This document shows, piece by piece, positions 1 through 7,983 of a stretch of 7,983 nt of DNA. The notes under the pieces were generated by a model, which worked only from the letters and a program-made list of their open reading frames with translations, made no database searches and was not told the origin of the DNA. Location of the stretch: IMG/VR virus record IMGVR_UViG_2529293249_000010. One strand, given 5' to 3'. The DNA comes from a virus (Duplodnaviria; Heunggongvirae; Uroviricota; Caudoviricetes). Positions within the stretch are counted from its first letter, which is position 1. Every line of letters begins with the position of its first letter. Position numbers and translations under genes: made by a program.

Positions 1-438
1 TCAAACGTCGCCAATCGCAGGAAAGACGTCTCTTTCAAGAGAGCGCCAGATATCTTCCGCATAGTCCTCTGTCACACTGGCTTTCTTCACATTCCACCAA
101 CGTTCAGCTACGAGTTGGAAAGTGTTGGTTTTGGCTTCCAGCGAACTGCGCAATTGTTCTTGCTGATGTTCCTGCGGATCGATCTGTTTAGCCAGTAGTG
201 AGCGGGACTCTGCACGGTAGTTTCTGGCATCGGCAAGGGTAACTGACGGGTAGGAGCCTATGCTCTTCTTTGCTCGTTTCTTGGTGACAGGGCGAATGTA
301 GCGAAACTGCCAGATTTTACTCCCGCTGGATTTAATGAGTAGCTCAAGGCCATCGCCATCATAGAGAACGTAGTCCGCCTCCTTGGGTTTGGCTGATTCT
401 ATTTCTTTAACGGATAGAGGTTTGGTTTGTCTTGCCAT
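1..438 (-). CDS. int: P4-type tyrosine integrase, N-terminal 145 aa only (gene continues beyond the window start)
   Basis: ORF open to the window edge, ATG at 438-436. N-terminus (LSVKEIESAKPKEADYVLYDGDGLELLIKSSGSKIWQFRY...SIGSYPSVTLADAR) has the signature of the arm-binding domain of P4/IntB-family integrases. Catalytic domain not visible in the window. Confidence 0.88.
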   Translation of the reverse strand: MARQTKPLSVKEIESAKPKEADYVLYDGDGLELLIKSSGSKIWQFRYIRPVTKKRAKKSIGSYPSVTLADARNYRAESRSLLAKQIDPQEHQQEQLRSSLEAKTNTFQLVAERWWNVKKASVTEDYAEDIWRSLERDVFPAIGDV

Positions 439-456
439 TGCCGGGTTTCCATAGTT

Positions 457-510
457 TTAGGCACCTCAAAAAACAATAAAGCTTTATGAGGTGCCTAACA
501 AGGTGCCTAA
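457..510 (-). promoter_or_regulatory. Candidate int promoter overlapped by a perfect 12-bp inverted repeat plus a third direct copy; possible Int operator / att-arm sites
   Basis: TTAGGCACCTCA (457-468) and its exact reverse complement TGAGGTGCCTAA (487-498) are separated by an 18-bp A/T-rich spacer; a third copy AGGTGCCTAA lies at 501-510. On the minus strand TTGTTA (496-501) - 17 bp - TATTGT (473-478) gives a sigma70-like promoter about 30 nt upstream of the int ATG. P4 int is reported to be autoregulated. Confidence 0.45.
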
Positions 511-563
511 AAGGATCGGATTTAATTAGTTTTCTTCGGACTTCGCGGGACAAATTGAGGGCA

Positions 564-597
564 CAAAAAAGCCCGCAGGGCTTGCGCCGTGCGGGCT
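564..597 (-). terminator. Putative rho-independent terminator (minus-strand orientation) between crr and int
   Basis: Stem AGCCCGCA (570-577) / TGCGGGCT (590-597) with a 12-nt loop; plus-strand A6 (565-570) gives a U-run immediately 3' of the stem on the minus-strand transcript. Confidence 0.4.
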
Positions 598-798
598 CTT
601 AGGACTTCATCGGATGACTCTGGTAATCACCGATGGAGAATTTTGGTGGGCTGGCGGAGTTTGAATAAATATTATATTGCTTTGATTTTTAACGATTTTG
701 TTTAATTCAGTTTTTGTGCGTATACCTAATTGTATACCAATGGCTGTAAGTTAATGTGAAATTAAAGCGCATTTTTACTTGGATTGATGCTATATCGT

Positions 799-1105
799 AC
801 AGGAAAAAAATTTTTTTTCGAAAGAACTGTTCACACTGTTCACCTTTCTTTTTTCTCCTTTTATTTCAGTATGATAGGTGGTGAATAATGGGTGAAGGGT
901 GAACATTCGATTCTTCACCTCCGGCATTCTGCTGGTGTGACTCATACCGGTGATTAATCCCCCGTACTGAAAATCACACAGGGAGAAAAAAGTTTTTTTT
1001 GATTTGATTGTTCACACTGTTCACCTTTCGTTTTTCTCTTTTAATTTCAGTGTGATAACGGGTGAATATACGGTGAAGGGTGAACAGTGGATTGTTCACC
1101 TTCGG
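799..1105. repeat. crr: crr (cis replication region): two ~125-bp direct repeats (about 799-924 and 978-1105, period ~181 bp), each with alpha-binding type-I iterons
   Basis: Near-identical units. Iterons TGTTCACA/TGTTCACC at 828-835, 837-844 and 1009-1016, 1018-1025; inverted GGTGAA(CA) copies at 881-905 and 1062-1087; TTCTTCACC at 911-919 and TGTTCACC at 1093-1100. Each unit is preceded by an A/T homopolymer run. The same octamer recurs in the ori cluster at 5834-5938. Confidence 0.85.
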
Positions 1106-1118
1106 GGGATTCAGGGAT

Positions 1119-1144
1119 AAAAAAAAGACCGGCAGATGCCGGTC
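1119..1144 (-). terminator. Rho-independent terminator of the left (alpha) operon
   Basis: Stem GACCGGC (1127-1133) / GCCGGTC (1138-1144), loop AGAT, followed on the minus-strand transcript by U8 (plus-strand A8 at 1119-1126); 17 nt downstream of the alpha stop codon (1163-1161). Confidence 0.6.
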
Positions 1145-1160
1145 AGATGAGTCATGAGGG

Positions 1161-3494
1161 TCAGGTTGTCGCAGGGTCGTCACATTTTGGCAGCCAGTCG
1201 CCGTAGCTTTCCTCTTTCAGCGTCAGGTTGGTCTGTATCCCCTGTTTGGTATGGCGCTTCTCGTAATTCAGTCCGTATTCCTTCAGCATCACCGGCAGCC
1301 CCAACCCGAACATTTTCAGACTGAGTACATTCCGGTAGCCGTTTGCCTCCATGTAGGCCAGATAGGCGTGATAGAGGTATTTACGGTAATTACGCGGGAT
1401 GATACTGGCGTTCCCCATATACATGCCGCTGGTCTGCGGCAGGGTTTCCAGATAGCCGATAAAATCAAACGTCGGGTCGGCATCCCGTTTGATGTTCAGC
1501 GCCTCGTCTGAGTTCTGCTGGGACTGAAGCAGTGACCGGGCGAGCATCGGGTCGCTGAATTTCTGCATCAGGTGACGCACGATGACCGCCAGCTCGCGGG
1601 TGATTTTGTCCTTAAGCTGCGGGTCGCGCTCCTGCGGGGCTATCTGTTCCGGGAAGTGAATAATCACCCGCCGGCGTGACACGCCGCCGCTGCGGTCGGT
1701 GAAGCGCATCGGGTTATTGTTCACGGCCAGAATTACCGCCGGGATATGCGTGGAGTATGCATCCCGGTATTTCGGGTCAACGGACACCGCATCGCCGCCG
1801 GTGATGGCCTTGAGTCCGGCACCGTCGCCGCTCCATTTTTCCTGGTCCGGCAGGCGTATCAGTGAGAAGCCAGTTAACGCGGCACGTTCACGCGGGGATT
1901 CCAGCGTCTCAATGGTGGCCGACGTGGCGTTATCCTCCCCGGCCAGCAGGGTGGCTATTTCGGCCATGATACTTTTGCCGCTGCCGCCGGGACCGGTCAC
2001 CTCCAGAAAGAGCTGCCAGTCGTAGCGGTTTGCCAGCACCATAAACAGTGCGGCCAGAATTACGTCGCGTTTTTCCGCACGACCACCGGCAGCACGGTCA
2101 AGCCAGCGCCAGAACGCGGGGGCGTGGGTTTCCAGCGTTTCCCCTTCCACCGGCGGGGTGAAATCCACATCGCACAGGGTACGCATCCAGTGTGACGGAC
2201 TGTGCGGGTGGAACGTGCCGTTCTGCGTGTCGAGCACGCCGTTACGAAAGCCAATCAGGCGGCGGGAGGGGGCTTCCTGCTGCGGAATAATCAGCTTCAG
2301 GGTGTCCACCACGGAGGCCACCTTCCCGGAGGAGAACGGCGCACGCAGACGCTGAAACAGCCCGGCCACATCCCGGGCAAAGTCCTGTGGCGGCAGCACC
2401 TTCCAGACACCATTTTCATAGCGGGACAGAAGCTGGCCGTTGGCATCGACCGCGAGCGCCTCGCCGTAATGCTCATAGATACGCATGGCCTTTTCGCTGG
2501 TACTCATGGCGGAAAACTCTGCTTCGCTCATGGTGTCGAACGGGCTTTCAGCCGGTGGCCGGATGGCATCATAAATGGCCTTACGGGTGGCCTCCCCGCC
2601 GTACTGCGTGAAGGCATCATTCCAGTCACCGAAGACCGGCGGCAGGGCAACAACACCTTCACACGCATCTGCGGCTGCGGCGGCTTTTTTCTGGCCGTCA
2701 CCGCTGAGGTCACGGTCTGCGGCAAGGACAATCTGACAGGCCGGATGCTTCTGCCGGGCAAGGCTGGCCAGAGAAAGGAGGTTCACGGAAGAAAGCGCCA
2801 CCATCACCGTTTCACCGGTCAGGTGATGTACGGTAAGTGCGGTCGCGTATCCCTCCGCTATCCACAGACGTTTTCCGGCCTGATTCTGTCCTTCAAGGGT
2901 GTGACAGGTGCCCCTGACCTGTCCGCCTTTCAGGGTGCGCTTACGGCCGTCAGCACTGATTAACTGAAGGTTAACCAGTTCGCCGCTGTCGTCATACAGT
3001 GGCACCACAAGGTCACCGGCACGCCAGCTCACGCCACCGGCTCTGTGTGTGCCGGTCAGCATCCGGCATTCCCGGCCGGGAAAGCCCTTGCGGGTCAGGT
3101 AGGCGTTACCGGTTCCGGGACGGGTTTTTGCCATCAGGGTTTGTGCCAGTGCGGCGGCGTTCTTCCGGGCAGCGTCTGTTTCAGCACCGGCGGCGGCCGT
3201 CACTGCCGGGTCAGCCGGGGGCAGGCTGCCGGTCACGGCAGCCACCTTTGCGGCCGCGTCGGACGGAGAGACACCAAACACCTTTTCAACCAGTTTCAGG
3301 CCGTCACCGGCACCACACTGATTGCAGTACCAGGTGCCGCGCCCCTCCCTGTCATCAAAACGGAAGCGGTCACTCCCGCCACAGACCGGACAGGGCTGAT
3401 GACGGTTTTTCAGCACCTGAATCCCCAGCGCCGGGAGAATACGCGGCCAGTGGCCGAGCGCATGGCTGACGGTGGCGGTTACGTTCATTTTCAT
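1161..3494 (-). CDS. alpha: Alpha: bifunctional DNA primase / helicase with C-terminal origin-binding domain (777 aa)
   Basis: 777-aa ORF, ATG at 3494 with GAAGGAG Shine-Dalgarno 8 nt upstream. N-terminal zinc ribbon CPVCGG...YCNQCG (residues 35-60); primase EGYATA motif (residues 214-219, nt 2838-2855); Walker A GPGGSGKS (nt 1971-1994). The iterons it should bind are present at crr and ori. Confidence 0.95.
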   Translation of the reverse strand: MKMNVTATVSHALGHWPRILPALGIQVLKNRHQPCPVCGGSDRFRFDDREGRGTWYCNQCGAGDGLKLVEKVFGVSPSDAAAKVAAVTGSLPPADPAVTAAAGAETDAARKNAAALAQTLMAKTRPGTGNAYLTRKGFPGRECRMLTGTHRAGGVSWRAGDLVVPLYDDSGELVNLQLISADGRKRTLKGGQVRGTCHTLEGQNQAGKRLWIAEGYATALTVHHLTGETVMVALSSVNLLSLASLARQKHPACQIVLAADRDLSGDGQKKAAAAADACEGVVALPPVFGDWNDAFTQYGGEATRKAIYDAIRPPAESPFDTMSEAEFSAMSTSEKAMRIYEHYGEALAVDANGQLLSRYENGVWKVLPPQDFARDVAGLFQRLRAPFSSGKVASVVDTLKLIIPQQEAPSRRLIGFRNGVLDTQNGTFHPHSPSHWMRTLCDVDFTPPVEGETLETHAPAFWRWLDRAAGGRAEKRDVILAALFMVLANRYDWQLFLEVTGPGGSGKSIMAEIATLLAGEDNATSATIETLESPRERAALTGFSLIRLPDQEKWSGDGAGLKAITGGDAVSVDPKYRDAYSTHIPAVILAVNNNPMRFTDRSGGVSRRRVIIHFPEQIAPQERDPQLKDKITRELAVIVRHLMQKFSDPMLARSLLQSQQNSDEALNIKRDADPTFDFIGYLETLPQTSGMYMGNASIIPRNYRKYLYHAYLAYMEANGYRNVLSLKMFGLGLPVMLKEYGLNYEKRHTKQGIQTNLTLKEESYGDWLPKCDDPATT

Positions 3495-3508
3495 GGTGTT
3501 GTTCTCCT

Positions 3509-3829
3509 TCAGTGCAGTACCGGCGCTTTTATGTGACGGGCACAGAGTTCATCCATCACAACCAGCCCGAGAAAGGACAGCGACGGCGCGGCCTTCAGGG
3601 GGCCGGATTCCATTAAATCTTCCAGCAGGGCACAGGCTATCTGACGCCCTTTTTCCTCACCGTGCTGGCGCAGATAAAAGCCTTCCAGCTCAGCGGCGAT
3701 GGCCGCCTCCAGTGATTCAAGGGTGAGATGCGGGTAGCGGTGCTGACGTTCGCACACGGTCAGCCAGGCACAGGCGACAGCGCGACGGTAAAGGGCTGCG
3801 CGTAAGACGGGCGGTAAGGGGGTTTTCAT
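3509..3829 (-). CDS. 106-aa conserved hypothetical protein of the left operon (position and length of P4 orf106); function unknown
   Basis: ATG at 3829 with GGAGG Shine-Dalgarno 7 nt upstream; TGA stop at 3511-3509 sits inside the alpha ribosome-binding site, 14 nt before the alpha ATG. No motif I can recognise. Confidence 0.75.
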
Positions 3830-3896
3830 TTGCTTTCCTCCCTGTGACAGATGACTGCATTCCGTGCCGGTTGCATTAACTGATAAGGCATATCTG

Positions 3897-3936
3897 CGTC
3901 TCCTGAAGACGTGCGTATCCCTGCGCGAATACGCAC
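3897..3936. other. Two adjacent hairpins in the 135-bp orf151-orf106 spacer (possible attenuator, processing site or antisense terminator)
   Basis: CGTCT (3897-3901) / AGACG (3907-3911) with a 5-nt loop; GTGCGTAT (3911-3918) / ATACGCAC (3929-3936) with a 10-nt loop. On the plus strand the second stem is followed by ATTTAATTTTT (3937-3947). This is the only sizeable non-coding gap in the otherwise coupled left operon. Confidence 0.4.
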
Positions 3937-3964
3937 ATTTAATTTTTCGGGTGTCGTTTTTTAA

Positions 3965-4420
3965 TTACAGATAATTGCGGTAACTGTTATCCGGGGTGAT
4001 TTCCGGGTCAGGCTCCGTGCGGGGAATTTCCCGCCATTCCCGCGCCACCGGTGCCGCCCGGCTGACCGGAACAGGGTCCTGCGGGTAAATATCCAGATAT
4101 TTCTCCCGCCATTTCTGTAATTCCGGGTCTCCGGCCATTTCTTTCAGTACCGCATGCCGGTTTACGGGGCTGCGTTTGAACAGGTCAGGACGGTCACAGG
4201 TAAATTCCCGCAGAAAACGCCCCAGCGGGATGTCTGTGGTGCGCCCGTCGGCGAGGATACGCACAAGGATACTGAATTTACGGCGGTACGGGTTCCAGAC
4301 AATTTCCGGGCAGCGGTACGGCATTTCCCACGGAATACCGTCTTCCAGAATGCCGACCACGGCCACATCGGGAAAACCGGCAGAACGGTAAATCTCACCG
4401 GGCTGGGGAAAATCAAACAT
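3965..4420 (-). CDS. 151-aa conserved hypothetical protein of the left operon (position and length of P4 orf151); function unknown
   Basis: ATG at 4420-4418; the upstream eps stop TGA (4415-4413) lies 2 nt inside this gene (ATGTTTGA), suggesting translational coupling. TAA stop at 3967-3965. Confidence 0.82.
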   Translation of the reverse strand: MFDFPQPGEIYRSAGFPDVAVVGILEDGIPWEMPYRCPEIVWNPYRRKFSILVRILADGRTTDIPLGRFLREFTCDRPDLFKRSPVNRHAVLKEMAGDPELQKWREKYLDIYPQDPVPVSRAAPVAREWREIPRTEPDPEITPDNSYRNYL

Positions 4421-4700
4421 GCGTCCTGTCTCCCCGGTCTTTCTGCTGGGCGAGAAAATCGCGGCACAGGCCTTTGGCTTTCAGCTCATTCAGCACAAAA
4501 TCAATATCTTCATTCAGGTAGCTGAAAATATGCGGAATGTAGAGCTGATGGAGGCCGGAGAGTTCACGGTGAATCAAATCACCCCCAACAAACTGGGATA
4601 CGGCGCTGGCGCGGTTGAGCTTATGGTAAGCCTCAATGCTGAGGTGTTCACGGGCGTCATGACGCGCTGAGACGGTCTGAGGGGCTTTTTTATTACGCAC
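4413..4700 (-). CDS. eps: Epsilon-like protein (95 aa, GTG start): candidate anti-repressor that derepresses the P2-type helper prophage
   Basis: No in-frame ATG exists downstream of the kil stop. GTG at 4700-4698 is preceded by GGAGG with a 6-nt spacer and gives exactly 95 codons; the kil stop TAA (4695-4693) lies 2 nt inside (GTGCGTAA). The coding-like region starts here, while the upstream part of the same frame is Cys/Pro/Trp-rich. Assignment to eps rests on position and recalled length. Confidence 0.68.
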
Positions 4701-4890
4701 GGGACACCTCCACCACCGGCAGACGGGCAGCAAGGGAGAGCACATAGTCACGGACAAGGGAACGGCGGGCGCTGCGTTCATCACCGGCGACGGTGCGAAG
4801 CATACAGATACGGGGATGACGGTCTGCGCGACGGACAGCCGCAAACACAAAGACAAATTCAGGGTGTGAGGGGGTAAGGGTCGTAGCCAT
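4693..4890 (-). CDS. kil: Kil (65 aa), first translated gene downstream of PLE; nested in-frame within eta
   Basis: ATG at 4890-4888 preceded by GGAGG (plus-strand CCTCC 4898-4902) with a 7-nt spacer; 65 codons; TAA at 4695-4693. The seqC element of the immunity leader (4899-4945) directly abuts this ribosome-binding site. Confidence 0.75.
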
Positions 4891-5292
4891 AAGGCAACCT
4901 CCGATAACAGCGTAAATGACGCTATCGCCGGAGTTTCCACGCTCGATGGCGATAGCCCAGACGGGGGTGGAAATACCGGCGTTATCGGAAACCGGCCAGC
5001 CCGGAGGCTGCCCCGCCTGAGCTACCATTGACTCTGCGGTATAATGAGCGGACGCGGGCAGAATGCACGGAGTGCCATTTGCTCGACTGACCACACACCA
5101 CACCATAATCTGGCGCTCTGTGGCGTTGATTGCGACACAAAAAAAGACGCATGGCGCGTCATATGTCGCCGATAACATACTCGGGTTTCCACGCCCGGCT
5201 GCCGATTTTGCGGCAGCGGAAAAACTATATCCGCAAATGCCGGAAAAAGGCAAGCCAGAAAAAGGAAGTTTTTGCAGAACAGGCATCATCAT
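4693..5292 (-). CDS. eta: Eta (about 197-199 aa), long ORF beginning upstream of PLE and ending as kil; translated from PLL transcripts
   Basis: Same frame as kil, open back to ATGATGATG (5292-5284), giving 199/198/197 aa. The vis stop TGA (5291-5289) is embedded in the triple ATG. The frame continues upstream to an ATG at 5337 (214 aa) that lies inside vis. It runs through the whole immunity leader, so it can only be translated from PLL read-through RNA. Confidence 0.55.
4899..4945 (-). promoter_or_regulatory. seqC: target of CI RNA in the left-operon leader, abutting the kil ribosome-binding site
   Basis: The transcript-strand sequence carries GCGUGGAAAC...GUUAUCGG, as does seqA; both blocks are complementary to the seqB region (4966-4988). 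Position is immediately 5' of the kil Shine-Dalgarno. Confidence 0.5.
4950..5020 (-). ncRNA. cI: CI immunity RNA (seqB region); boundaries approximate
   Basis: The plus strand at 4966-4988 reads GTGGAAATACCGGCGTTATCGG, so the minus-strand transcript carries CCGAUAAC...UUUCCAC, complementary to the GUGGAAAC and GUUAUCGG blocks of seqA and seqC. The region is GC-rich with several internal inverted repeats (for example CCGG...CCGG). Exact processed ends cannot be read from sequence. Confidence 0.5.
5165..5204 (-). promoter_or_regulatory. seqA: CI RNA target at about +13 to +52 of the PLE transcript
   Basis: The transcript-strand sequence CGGCAGCCGGGCGUGGAAACCCGAGUAUGUUAUCGGCGAC shares the GUGGAAAC and GUUAUCGG blocks with seqC. 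Confidence 0.5.
5224..5253 (-). promoter_or_regulatory. PLE, sigma70-type promoter of the left operon / immunity transcript
   Basis: On the minus strand TTGCCT (5253-5248) - 18-bp spacer - TATAGT (5229-5224); predicted start near 5217, just upstream of seqA and about 35 bp downstream of the vis stop. Confidence 0.5.
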
Positions 5293-5555
5293 GCGTCGTA
5301 CCCCCGTTTGCGTCCGGCAATGCGCCCGGCCATCCATGCGGTGACTTCAGAGTGCAGCCAGGCCACATTTTTACCGCCAAGACTCACCTGCGGCGGAAAT
5401 TCCCCCTTACGGATGAGTTCGTAGATGGTCGAGCGTGACAGGCCGCACAGGTGCATCACTTCCGGCAGACGTAAAAAACGCTCCTGCGTGATGTCCGGCA
5501 GCGGCATCAGTGGCGTCACAGGGGCGGGAGACGGGGAAGAAAAAACAGCTTGCAT
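5289..5555 (-). CDS. vis: Vis: AlpA/Vis-family helix-turn-helix regulator and excision factor (88 aa)
   Basis: ATG at 5555-5553 with GAGG 7 nt upstream. Core motif [49 protein letters not shown] is typical of the AlpA/Vis/Xis-like family. It is the first gene after PLL. An internal ATG at codon 17 is an alternative start. Confidence 0.85.
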
Positions 5556-5599
5556 CGGGCTACCTCGTTAATGTCCATACAGCACCGGATAAGTCCGTC

Positions 5600-5680
5600 C
5601 GGCTTCGGGTAGCGCTTTATTTTGTGAATATTTTCGGCAGACGCAACAGGGGGGATTTGTTCCGGCAGTCTTACAATGGC
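5600..5680 (-). promoter_or_regulatory. PLL late promoter region with a Delta/Ogr-type activator box TGT-N12-ACA
   Basis: Dyad TGTTCCGGCAGTCTTACA at 5658-5675, about 100 bp upstream of the vis ATG; a -55 placement would put the start near 5611. The -10 element is poor (AAAATA or TATTCA-like), as expected for an activator-dependent promoter. Confidence 0.42.
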
Positions 5681-5832
5681 TGTGTATTTTTTGTACATCA
5701 GCGCCAGATAGCTTTAAAACGCTCTGGAAGGAGCTGGAAAAAATTATAGTGAAATACAAATTGTTTTTTCTTATTTATTTCAGTGAATTAATAAAAATAA
5801 AAAGTAATAAACAGCACAAAAAGCCCATCAAC

Positions 5833-5938
5833 GGGTGAACAGTGGTGAACAGACGGTGAACAGTCATTACTGCGATTGTTCACCCTTTAACTTACTGTAT
5901 TACTTATCTTTTTTATTAAGGTGAACAGAGGTGAACAG
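5833..5938. other. ori: ori (origin of replication): cluster of six alpha-binding iterons flanked by A/T-rich DNA
   Basis: GGTGAACAG at 5834-5842, 5844-5852, 5855-5863, 5920-5928 and 5930-5938 (spaced 10-11 bp), plus inverted TGTTCACC at 5877-5884. Strongly A/T-rich flanks at 5760-5820 and 5886-5960. Same octamer as in crr, about 4.9 kb away. Confidence 0.82.
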
Positions 5939-6016
5939 TAAAATATAAAAAAACAAACAGTAAGCCGGTTTTTCCTGCGACCTTTTCCTGGCTTGCCGGT
6001 GTGAGGATGAGTCTCC

Positions 6017-6080
6017 TGTGTCAGGGCTGGCACATCTGCAATGCGTCGTGTTGTTGTCCGGTGTACGTCACAATTTTCTC
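6017..6080 (+). promoter_or_regulatory. Psid late promoter with a Delta/Ogr-type activator box TGT-N12-ACA
   Basis: Dyad TGTGTCAGGGCTGGCACA at 6017-6034; candidate -10 CACAAT at 6069-6074; sid Shine-Dalgarno GAGGAG at 6094-6099, 6 nt before the ATG. Confidence 0.48.
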
Positions 6081-6105
6081 AACCTGAAGTGACGAGGAGC
6101 CGAAA

Positions 6106-6840
6106 ATGTCTGACAACACCATCCCTGAATATCTGCAATCCGCGCTGGCACAACTGGAAAAGGCCAGAGCCGCCCATCTTGAGAACGCCCGTCTGATGGA
6201 TGAGACCGTCACGGCCATTGAACGGGCAGAGCAGGAAAAAAATGCGCTGGCGCAGGCCGACGGAAACGACGCTGACGACTGGCGCACGGCCTTTCGTGCA
6301 GCCGGTGGTGTCCTGAGCGACGAGCTGAAACAGCGCCACATTGAGCGCGTGGCACGCCGGGAGCTGGTACAGGAATATGACAATCTGGCCGTGGTGCTGA
6401 ATTTTGAACGCGAACGCCTGAAAGGGGCGTGTGACAGCACGGCCACCGCCTACCGGAAGGCACATCATCACCTGCTGAGTCTGTATGCAGAGCATGAGCT
6501 GGAACACGCCCTGAATGAAACCTGTGAGGCGCTTGTCCGGGCAATGCATCTGAGCATTCTGGTACAGGAAAATCCGCTCGCCAACACCACCGGCCATCAG
6601 GGCTACGTCGCACCGGAAAAGGCTGTCATGCAGCAGGTGAAATCATCGCTGGAACAGAAAATTAAACAGATGCAAATCAGCCTCACCGGCGAGCCGGTTC
6701 TCCGGCTGACCGGACTGTCAGCGGCAACACTTCCTCACATGGATTATGAGGTGGCAGGCACACCGGCACAGCGCAAGGTGTGGCAGGACAAAATAGACCA
6801 GCAGGGAGCAGTGCTTAAGGCCAGAGGACTGCTGTCATGA
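6106..6840 (+). CDS. sid: Sid: external scaffolding / capsid size-determination protein (244 aa)
   Basis: 244-aa ORF with a strong Shine-Dalgarno; predicted to be highly alpha-helical and charged. Length and position (first gene of the Psid operon, upstream of delta and psu) match P4 Sid. Confidence 0.93.
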   Translation: MSDNTIPEYLQSALAQLEKARAAHLENARLMDETVTAIERAEQEKNALAQADGNDADDWRTAFRAAGGVLSDELKQRHIERVARRELVQEYDNLAVVLNFERERLKGACDSTATAYRKAHHHLLSLYAEHELEHALNETCEALVRAMHLSILVQENPLANTTGHQGYVAPEKAVMQQVKSSLEQKIKQMQISLTGEPVLRLTGLSAATLPHMDYEVAGTPAQRKVWQDKIDQQGAVLKARGLLS

Positions 6841-7337
6841 TTTACTGCCCGTCGTGTGGACATGTTGCTCACACCCGCCGCGCACATTTCATGGACGATG
6901 GCACCAAGATAATGATTGCACAGTGCCGGAATATTTATTGCTCTGCGACATTTGAAGCGAGTGAAAGCTTTTTCTCTGACAGTAAAGATTCAGGAATGGA
7001 ATACATTTCAGGCAAACAGAGATACCGCGATTCACTGACGTCAGCCTCCGGCAGTATGAAACGCCCGAAAAGAATGCTTGTTACCGGATATTGTTGTCGG
7101 AGATGTAAAGGCCTTGCACTGTCAAGAACATCGCGGCGTCTGTCTCAGGAAGTCACCGAGCGTTTTTATGTGTGCACGGATCCGGGCTGTGGTCTGGTGT
7201 TTAAAACGCTTCAGACCATCACCCGCTTCATTGTCCGCCCGGTCACGCCGGACGAACTGGCAGAACGCCTGCATGAAAAACAGGAACTGCCGCCAGTACG
7301 CTTAAAAACACAATCATATTCGCTGCGTCTGGAATGA
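6837..7337 (+). CDS. delta: Delta: late-gene transcriptional activator, tandem Ogr-type zinc-finger protein (166 aa)
   Basis: ATG overlaps the sid stop (ATGA at 6837-6840). Two Ogr-like modules, each with C-x2-C ... C-x4-C: CPSCG...CRNIYC and CRRCKG...CTDPGC. Confidence 0.93.
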   Translation: MIYCPSCGHVAHTRRAHFMDDGTKIMIAQCRNIYCSATFEASESFFSDSKDSGMEYISGKQRYRDSLTSASGSMKRPKRMLVTGYCCRRCKGLALSRTSRRLSQEVTERFYVCTDPGCGLVFKTLQTITRFIVRPVTPDELAERLHEKQELPPVRLKTQSYSLRLE

Positions 7338-7410
7338 GGGCTGCCGGTTAACCCCGGCCGTCGCCGCACACCGTATTTTTATTCTTCAGCATGATGAGAA
7401 AGAGATAACG

Positions 7411-7983
7411 ATGGAGAGCACAGCCTTACAGCAGGCCTTTGACACCTGTCAGAATAACAAAGCAGCATGGCTGCAACGCAAAAATGAGCTGGCTGCGGCC
7501 GAACAGGAATATCTGCGGCTTCTGTCCGGGGAAGGCAGAAACGTCAGTCGCCTGGACGAATTACGCAATATTATCGAAGTCAGAAAATGGCAGGTGAATC
7601 AGGCCGCCGGTCGTTATATTCGTTCGCATGAAGCCGTTCAGCACATCAGCATCCGCGACCGGCTGAATGATTTTATGCAGCAGCACGGCACAGCACTGGC
7701 GGCGGCACTGGCACCGGAGCTGATGGGATACAGTGAGCTGACGGCCATTGCCCGAAACTGTGCCATACAGCGTGCCACAGATGCCCTGCGTGAAGCCCTT
7801 CTGTCCTGGCTTGCGAAGGGGGAAAAAATTAATTATTCCGCACAGGATAGTGACATTTTAACGACCATCGGATTCAGGCCTGACGCGGCTTCGGTGGATG
7901 ACAGCCGTGAAAAATTCACCCCTGCGCAGAACATGATTTTTTCGCGTAAAAGTGCGCAACTGGAATCACATCAGTCTGTGTAA
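7411..7983 (+). CDS. psu: Psu: polarity suppression protein (Rho antagonist / capsid decoration), 190 aa
   Basis: 190-aa ORF with a purine-rich ribosome-binding site (AAGAGA, 7400-7405); TAA stop is the last three bases of the window. Length and position after delta match P4 Psu. Confidence 0.92.
   Translation: MESTALQQAFDTCQNNKAAWLQRKNELAAAEQEYLRLLSGEGRNVSRLDELRNIIEVRKWQVNQAAGRYIRSHEAVQHISIRDRLNDFMQQHGTALAAALAPELMGYSELTAIARNCAIQRATDALREALLSWLAKGEKINYSAQDSDILTTIGFRPDAASVDDSREKFTPAQNMIFSRKSAQLESHQSV

Follow-up and report, generated by a model that had tools for sequence, protein, structure and literature searches.

Among the closest described systems to the element considered here is the satellite phage P4 (NC_001609 / X51522). 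The sequence that we analyzed, the 7,983-nucleotide viral record IMGVR_UViG_2529293249_000010 (hereafter the window, by which the whole stretch is meant), shares with P4 the gene order from the cis replication region crr to psu, the repeats in crr and in the replication origin ori, immunity based on the CI RNA and, in its flank, cos. P4, however, encodes a 439-amino-acid Int together with a leuX attP, neither of which has a DNA match in positions 1-804 of the window, whereas the present element occupies an ssrA site and its closest relative encodes a 397-amino-acid integrase. The cargo of P4 is gop/beta/cII, while that in the flank of this element is a Metallophos + HAD pair, and the specificity patches of the CI RNA and both of their targets differ as well.

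The second system is the group of Escherichia coli P4-like satellites with a defence hotspot (PMC9122126, PMC8628076); this hotspot adjoins cos and separates psu from int (PMC9122126). A P4-like satellite was recognized here by the seven components of PMC8628076, namely integrase, psu, delta, sid, alpha, alpA and epsilon. The core components, their order and the position of the hotspot are the same in the present element and nothing substantive differs, except that the window has a rare arrangement: int stands next to alpha in less than 1% of elements, where it is the integrase of a neighbouring mobile element (de Sousa and Rocha, PMC8628076). The third system is the IntA integrase of the cryptic prophage CP4-57 at ssrA in E. 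coli K-12. Its inverted and direct arm repeats are laid out like those of the integrase stump at the left end of the window, and the ssrA terminator and spacer sequence is common to both. In contrast to K-12 IntA, the stump is cut after 145 codons by the insertion sequence IS3, lacks the catalytic domain and has the satellite between itself and ssrA; the arm repeats are GGTGCCTAA in the stump and GGGCCTA in K-12.

We conclude with high confidence that a P4-like prophage integrated at the ssrA 3' end contributes its alpha-side end to the window, the remainder being a scar left at this site by an older island. The whole conserved P4 core, along with the satellite's own arm repeats, occupies positions from about 650 onward to 7983. 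In positions 1-649, IS3 has cut a CP4-57 IntA-type integrase down to 145 codons; its AGGTGCCTAA arm repeats also lie here, as do displaced copies of the ssrA terminator and 3' tip. The order is thus IS3, the integrase stump of the older island, displaced ssrA sequence (terminator, then 3' end), the att crossover and crr-psu; outside the window cos and cargo follow, and after them presumably the satellite's own integrase and ssrA. The latter integrase would have recombined attP with ssrA at the TGGTGG tip, and this integration would have set the satellite between ssrA and the old scar, whence an adjacency of int and alpha that imitates the circular P4 map. With a foreign stump on the left and the satellite's own int expected past the cargo, the variable defence hotspot is therefore to be placed beyond the right edge and not beyond the left, where IS3 and a decayed IntA-type island are reached.

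The main value of this result is a correction: an integrase beside alpha is no marker of the hotspot's other side. At ssrA, successive insertions of elements leave dead integrase stumps, and delimitation by the nearest integrase would misdraw the boundaries of satellites and seek their cargo on the wrong side. The element itself is an ordinary and very common P4-type phage satellite core in an E. coli chromosome at ssrA, and the satellite, its type of integration site, the hotspot and the cargo pair in the flank have all been catalogued already.

The P4 Core and Its Right Flank

Positions 805-7983 form a single colinear match to P4 4291-11460 with 97.3% identity (megablast against phage records, with the same result from blastn). 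In the blastn alignment of the window with P4 there are 179 mismatches and 17 gap columns from 8 gap openings; no indel is larger than the 9-bp insertion, AGTCATGAG, at 1150-1158, just past the alpha stop codon, and all others are of 1-2 bp. No non-P4 gene is inserted in 805-7983 in this alignment. All ten P4 core proteins are present at full length with 89-100% amino-acid identity, sid, delta and psu being adjacent to each other and alpha, epsilon and orf88/AlpA standing in the P4 order. The most diverged part of the core is the immunity region, where the CI RNA is 92% and eta 89% identical to P4. The preliminary description, made from the window alone, had proposed a compact P4-type core with no cargo inside and with psu ending at the last base, and had suggested an alignment to P4 as a check; all of this is borne out. 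Its assignment of every open reading frame (ORF) with coding character and a ribosome-binding site to the canonical P4 gene set, and of the intergenic DNA to crr, ori, promoters and the immunity leader, likewise stands for the core, but fails for the integrase at 1-438 and for the junction at 439-804, which are considered below.

The right flank can be followed in a 66.9-kb contig from run ERR9716571 (locus L025), which equals the window over 7,983 bases save for a mismatch at 1821. The first 190 nucleotides after psu are 97.4% identical to P4, and the cos 19-mer GGCGAGGCGGGGAAAGCAC lies 163-182 nucleotides after the psu stop codon, outside the window. The cargo after cos consists of a 537-amino-acid metallophosphoesterase gene and then a gene for a 279-amino-acid HAD hydrolase (L025 575-2188 and 1-572; L003 19608-22063). 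The flank genes were also compared with defence models, as suggested earlier: in PADLOC the HAD protein matches PDLC03008 "Hydrolase" at 4.7e-64, and the phosphoesterase match is weak. The same pair (WP_000995671 and WP_000734786) is listed among the P4 hotspot systems in a supplementary table of Rousset et al. 2022 (PMC9122126); no test of the Metallophos + HAD pair was found in the main text of that paper.

The satellite's own integrase gene is not in the window and would lie past the cargo. The related locus L003, with 99.4% identity in the core and 99.92% to the right flank of L025, has an intact int of 397 codons after the cargo and then ssrA. In window orientation, the order in the annotated contexts of relatives is neighbouring DNA, a copy of att, crr, alpha-psu, one to four cargo genes, the satellite's own int of about 397 codons, ssrA and smpB. 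The variable locus of the relatives is thus situated between psu/cos and their own int, as the preliminary description had stated in agreement with PMC9122126, and the cargo differs in almost every relative locus fetched.

It could be argued that the satellite is a fixed, decaying cryptic prophage which can no longer be excised or mobilised. The locus is much rearranged and stands beside dead elements, and relatives do decay, eta being split in E. coli E47 and IS100 insertions interrupting H12, H16 and H17. However, the ten core ORFs of the window are all intact and close to those of functional P4, nothing is missing among crr, ori, the CI RNA with its targets and the two att arms, the flank of L025 has an intact cos, and L003 has an intact own integrase; decay of this kind is therefore unlikely.

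The Junction at ssrA and the Integrase Stump

Positions 439-804 are an attachment-site junction between two different elements. The K-12 spacer between ssrA and intA, which includes the same terminator sequence, matches the window at 512-649 and diverges directly after TTTTGGTGG; therefore the crossover is at the 3' tip of ssrA, at about 644-649. In other genomes, satellite matches begin at 642-650 and matches on the stump side end at 656-670. The types of arm repeats differ to the left and to the right of the att core: the AGGTGCCTAA motif is absent from 666-804 and from the arm of the own int of L003, and the GTATACC motif of the satellite's own arm occurs again upstream of the own int of L003 (23300-23355). 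Satellites integrated at ssrA share window positions 643/650-7983, whereas those at other chromosomal sites share only 800-7983; hence 650-804 is the arm of an ssrA-specific attachment module, and the conserved core starts at crr. A tRNA/tmRNA scan of the window found no such gene, only a 22-nucleotide sequence resembling the 3' end of ssrA. A P4-type module of Int with the leuX attP was sought by protein identity, DNA match and the tRNA-like scan and was not found in the window, blastn giving no DNA match between P4 3926-4290 and window 1-804; the att core resembles ssrA.

The ORF at the left edge, which the preliminary description took for an integrase running off the first base, is complete, since it has 145 codons and an in-frame TGA at bases 3-1. 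It is a pseudogene fragment and not a working integrase, because it ends after codon 145 and keeps no more than 38 positions of the central domain: in this ORF Pfam found Arm-DNA-bind_3 (77.7 bits) and positions 1-38 of Phage_int_M but no C-terminal catalytic Phage_integrase domain. Its product is 100% identical to the first 145 residues of a 380-residue integrase of E. coli E47, and identity is 76.6% to K-12 IntA, about 50% to the integrases of the closest satellites (50% to the own integrase of L003) and 38% to P4 Int. This integrase belongs to an older ssrA island and is foreign to the satellite. Klebsiella phage matches to 5-665 cover only the module of int and the ssrA flank, not the satellite.

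The cut in the stump coincides with an IS3 end. The window starts with TCA|AACGTC where the intact E47 gene has GCT|AACGTC, and in NCTC9088, where the right end of IS3 lies in the same gene, the junction reads ...GGGTAAGATCA|AACGTC with the target duplication AAC. L025 continues beyond the stump with TGATCTTACCCAGCAATAGTGGACACGCGG, an IS3 inverted repeat, and ends 27 nucleotides past the window edge. IS3 transposase genes come after the stump in loci L016-L019, a cut-off ORF begins at the same offset in L020, and in L021-L025 the contig ends at the IS3 side of the stump. The exact 145-residue product occurs in 440 index blocks. Its att side adjoins P4-like satellites in L016, L018 and L025, P2-like prophages in L017 and L021-L023, other elements in L020 and L024, and ssrA in L019. 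Because the identical stump adjoins P4-like, P2-like and other elements or ssrA itself, the stump with IS3 is a scar fixed downstream of ssrA, a site at which elements have integrated serially. Window positions 1-665 are found at 99.5-99.9% identity directly beside ssrA in many genomes that have no satellite there.

Matches to the window occur in 1,879 of 5,426 complete E. coli genomes, and in 953 of the 5,426 they cover at least 80% of it. None of the 2,223 matching places is on a plasmid, all being chromosomal; most matches begin at 642-649 and not at base 1, and the junction of the left int with crr was found in only 3 of the 5,426 genomes. No match covering at least 80% of the window was found in the plasmid collection, where some hits are chromosomes filed as plasmids, which argues against a source in plasmid form.

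These observations bear on the preliminary description, which read int beside alpha as in the circular map of P4: a single contiguous satellite running int, attP, crr, alpha ... psu, with the left integrase as its own, a hotspot extending from psu to the 3' end of int, and hence variable DNA outside both edges. The order of the 5' end of int, an att-like core, crr and alpha does mirror P4 3926-4636, with similar spacing. Nevertheless, the int ORF ends at IS3, the arm repeats change type across the core, the same stump with IS3 adjoins unrelated elements and ssrA itself, every matching place is chromosomal, and the closest satellites have a different own integrase past their cargo, so that this arrangement can hardly be upheld. 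Equally improbable is the notion that a point nonsense mutation and not IS3 cut the stump, the IS3 match being coincidental: just three bases of the window bear on this question, but at two of the three the intact gene has another base, the IS3 junction agrees with all three at the exact position, L025 continues into the IS3 inverted repeat, and in L016-L019 the 145-residue product is followed by transposase genes, with the offset kept in L020.

Some points weigh against an alpha-side prophage end joined to an older scar. Within the window, the case for IS3 consists of three bases. The flanks are those of L025 in place of the source itself; L025 ends 27 nucleotides into IS3 on the left, and the part of it used on the right ends within the HAD gene. 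The satellite's own int and ssrA are taken from L003, whose left flank differs, and every gene function is assigned from identity to P4.

Each end of the window falls exactly on a stop codon, that of the int stump at 1-3 and that of psu at 7981-7983. Gene-call boundaries thus seem to have determined where the window was cut, and therefore psu ends at the last base and int looked as if it ran off the edge.

Copies of the ssrA terminator, 83-87% identical, stand upstream of the satellites' own integrases, and each element that integrates at ssrA seems to bring its own copy. The Rfam IsrM match at 565-621(-) was rejected as a small RNA, with 31 bits against a cut-off of 376; it is the hairpin of the displaced ssrA terminator.

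CI RNA Immunity and Its Targets

By 97% identity to P4, the CI RNA would pair with seqA and seqC, end early transcription and so keep lysogeny (PMC8628076, PMC4825925). In the window its predicted fold has -47.2 kcal/mol (z = -5.1), with both seqB patches unpaired. The target leader at 5140-5230(-) matches Rfam isrK with 74.7 bits (cut-off 50) and c4-a1b1 with 51.5 bits (cut-off 46.7). Exact 8-nucleotide and 7-nucleotide complements of the two patches are present at both seqA and seqC, and in the window and in P4 alike the complements are exact at both targets, although the patches themselves differ between the two elements (Table 1).

Among 15 related loci there are three alleles per patch in six combinations, and seqA and seqC are always compensated. 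It is about as likely as not that the patches are exchangeable specificity modules whose alleles would define heteroimmune classes. If true, which P4-like satellites share a cell, or superinfect it, would depend on the patch alleles. Assembly GCA_021890415.1 contains two satellites with an identical alpha protein, one at ssrA and one elsewhere (L012 and L013), with different patch-1 alleles, CCTGTGAA and CCGATAAC; this single case is consistent with coexistence of heteroimmune satellites. Heteroimmunity via these sites has reportedly been demonstrated for the retronphage phiR73, and such classes would be an extension of known biology, not a new field.

Other Features of the Window

The coordinates of all features are collected in Table 1.

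Table 1. Features of the 7,983-nucleotide window and comparison of the CI RNA patches with P4
Feature	Position	Strand	Description
IS3 terminal inverted repeat, last three bases	1..3	-	supply the TGA stop of the int stump
IntA (CP4-57)-type tyrosine integrase, N-terminal stump	1..438	-	145 codons and in-frame TGA at bases 3-1
Arm-type repeats of the stump integrase, AGGTGCCTAA, three copies	455..512	.	457-466 (inverted), 489-498, 501-510
Displaced ssrA transcription terminator	565..600	-	hairpin and T run, -25.9 kcal/mol, z = -3.35
att core resembling the ssrA 3' end (TGGTGGGCTGGCGGAGTTTGAA)	644..665	-	crossover at about 644-649; ssrA flank left, satellite right
Satellite's own arm-type repeats, GTATACC, two copies	720..738	+	720-726, 732-738
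crr, cis replication region	805..1105	+	two 120-bp direct repeats, 805-924 and 986-1105; five TGTTCACC octamers
alpha transcription terminator	1127..1144	-	7-bp stem (6 GC pairs) and T8; z = -3.78; equivalent place annotated in the P4 record
alpha, primase-helicase	1161..3494	-	99.2% to P4 alpha; Pfam Zn_Ribbon_Prim, Toprim_3, D5_N, DUF5906, Pox_D5
orf106 (cnr)	3509..3829	-	100% to P4 ORF106; Pfam DUF5375
orf151	3965..4420	-	98.0% to P4 ORF151
epsilon, helper phage derepression	4413..4700	-	98.9% to P4 epsilon; Pfam Derepression family
eta, 199 codons, kil nested at the 3' end	4693..5292	-	88.9% to the P4 199-codon frame; Pfam Phage_ASH; overlaps the immunity RNA region
seqC target of the CI RNA	4901..4940	-	GTTATCGG at 4901-4908, GTGGAAA at 4934-4940
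CI immunity RNA	4945..5032	-	Rfam C4, 77.9 bits (cut-off 45); seqB patches at 4981-4988 and 4967-4973
Immunity leader	5140..5253	-	PLE-like promoter 5253-5224; seqA 5169-5176 and 5186-5192; terminator 5160-5146
orf88, AlpA-type regulator and excisionase	5289..5555	-	98.9% to P4 ORF88; Pfam Phage_AlpA
ori	5834..5937	.	six TGTTCACC type-1 repeats
sid, capsid size determinant	6106..6840	+	98.8% to P4 Sid
delta, late gene activator	6837..7337	+	98.2% to P4 Delta; Pfam Ogr_Delta
psu	7411..7983	+	98.4% to P4 Psu; Pfam Psu, 296 bits; stop codon ends at the final base of the window
seqB patch 1			window CCGATAAC, P4 CCTGTGAA
seqB patch 2			window TTTCCAC, P4 TTCTCAC
Patch 1 complement in seqA and seqC			window GTTATCGG, P4 TTCACAGG
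Patch 2 complement in seqA and seqC			window GTGGAAA, P4 GTGAGAA

Identity to P4 allows tentative roles for the core proteins (PMC8628076, PMC4825925): epsilon would derepress a P2-type helper phage, delta would turn on the late genes, Sid and Psu would shrink the helper capsid, and alpha would prime and unwind DNA, its action at ori and crr following the annotation of the P4 record. The orf88/AlpA product probably aids excision, being annotated in the P4 record as an excisionase and transcriptional regulator.

The window contains 11 copies of the octamer TGTTCACC against 0.3 expected, five in crr and six in ori. The alpha and immunity terminators are at positions equivalent to those in P4. 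A promoter scan of the window gave three sites against 4.8 in shuffled sequence, that is, no excess; the PLE-like promoter, whose position is expected from P4, is the only scan site used, as a positional note.

Long alternative-frame ORFs, for example those at 2202-2963(+), at 4693-5337(-) with 214 amino acids and at 4413-4940(-) with 175, were rejected as extra genes, being shadow frames or upstream extensions of known genes (epsilon, eta). Near the 9-bp insertion, the C-terminal residues of alpha differ between the window (...DDPATT) and P4 (...DPTTA).

Eta is intact in the window, unlike in E. coli E47 (L014, 24689-25237), the closest complete genome with the same junction, where it is split into a 65-amino-acid Icd-like ORF and an 'ash' pseudogene. 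The ssrA region of E47 is rearranged and contains a P2-like remnant, IS26 and IS1.

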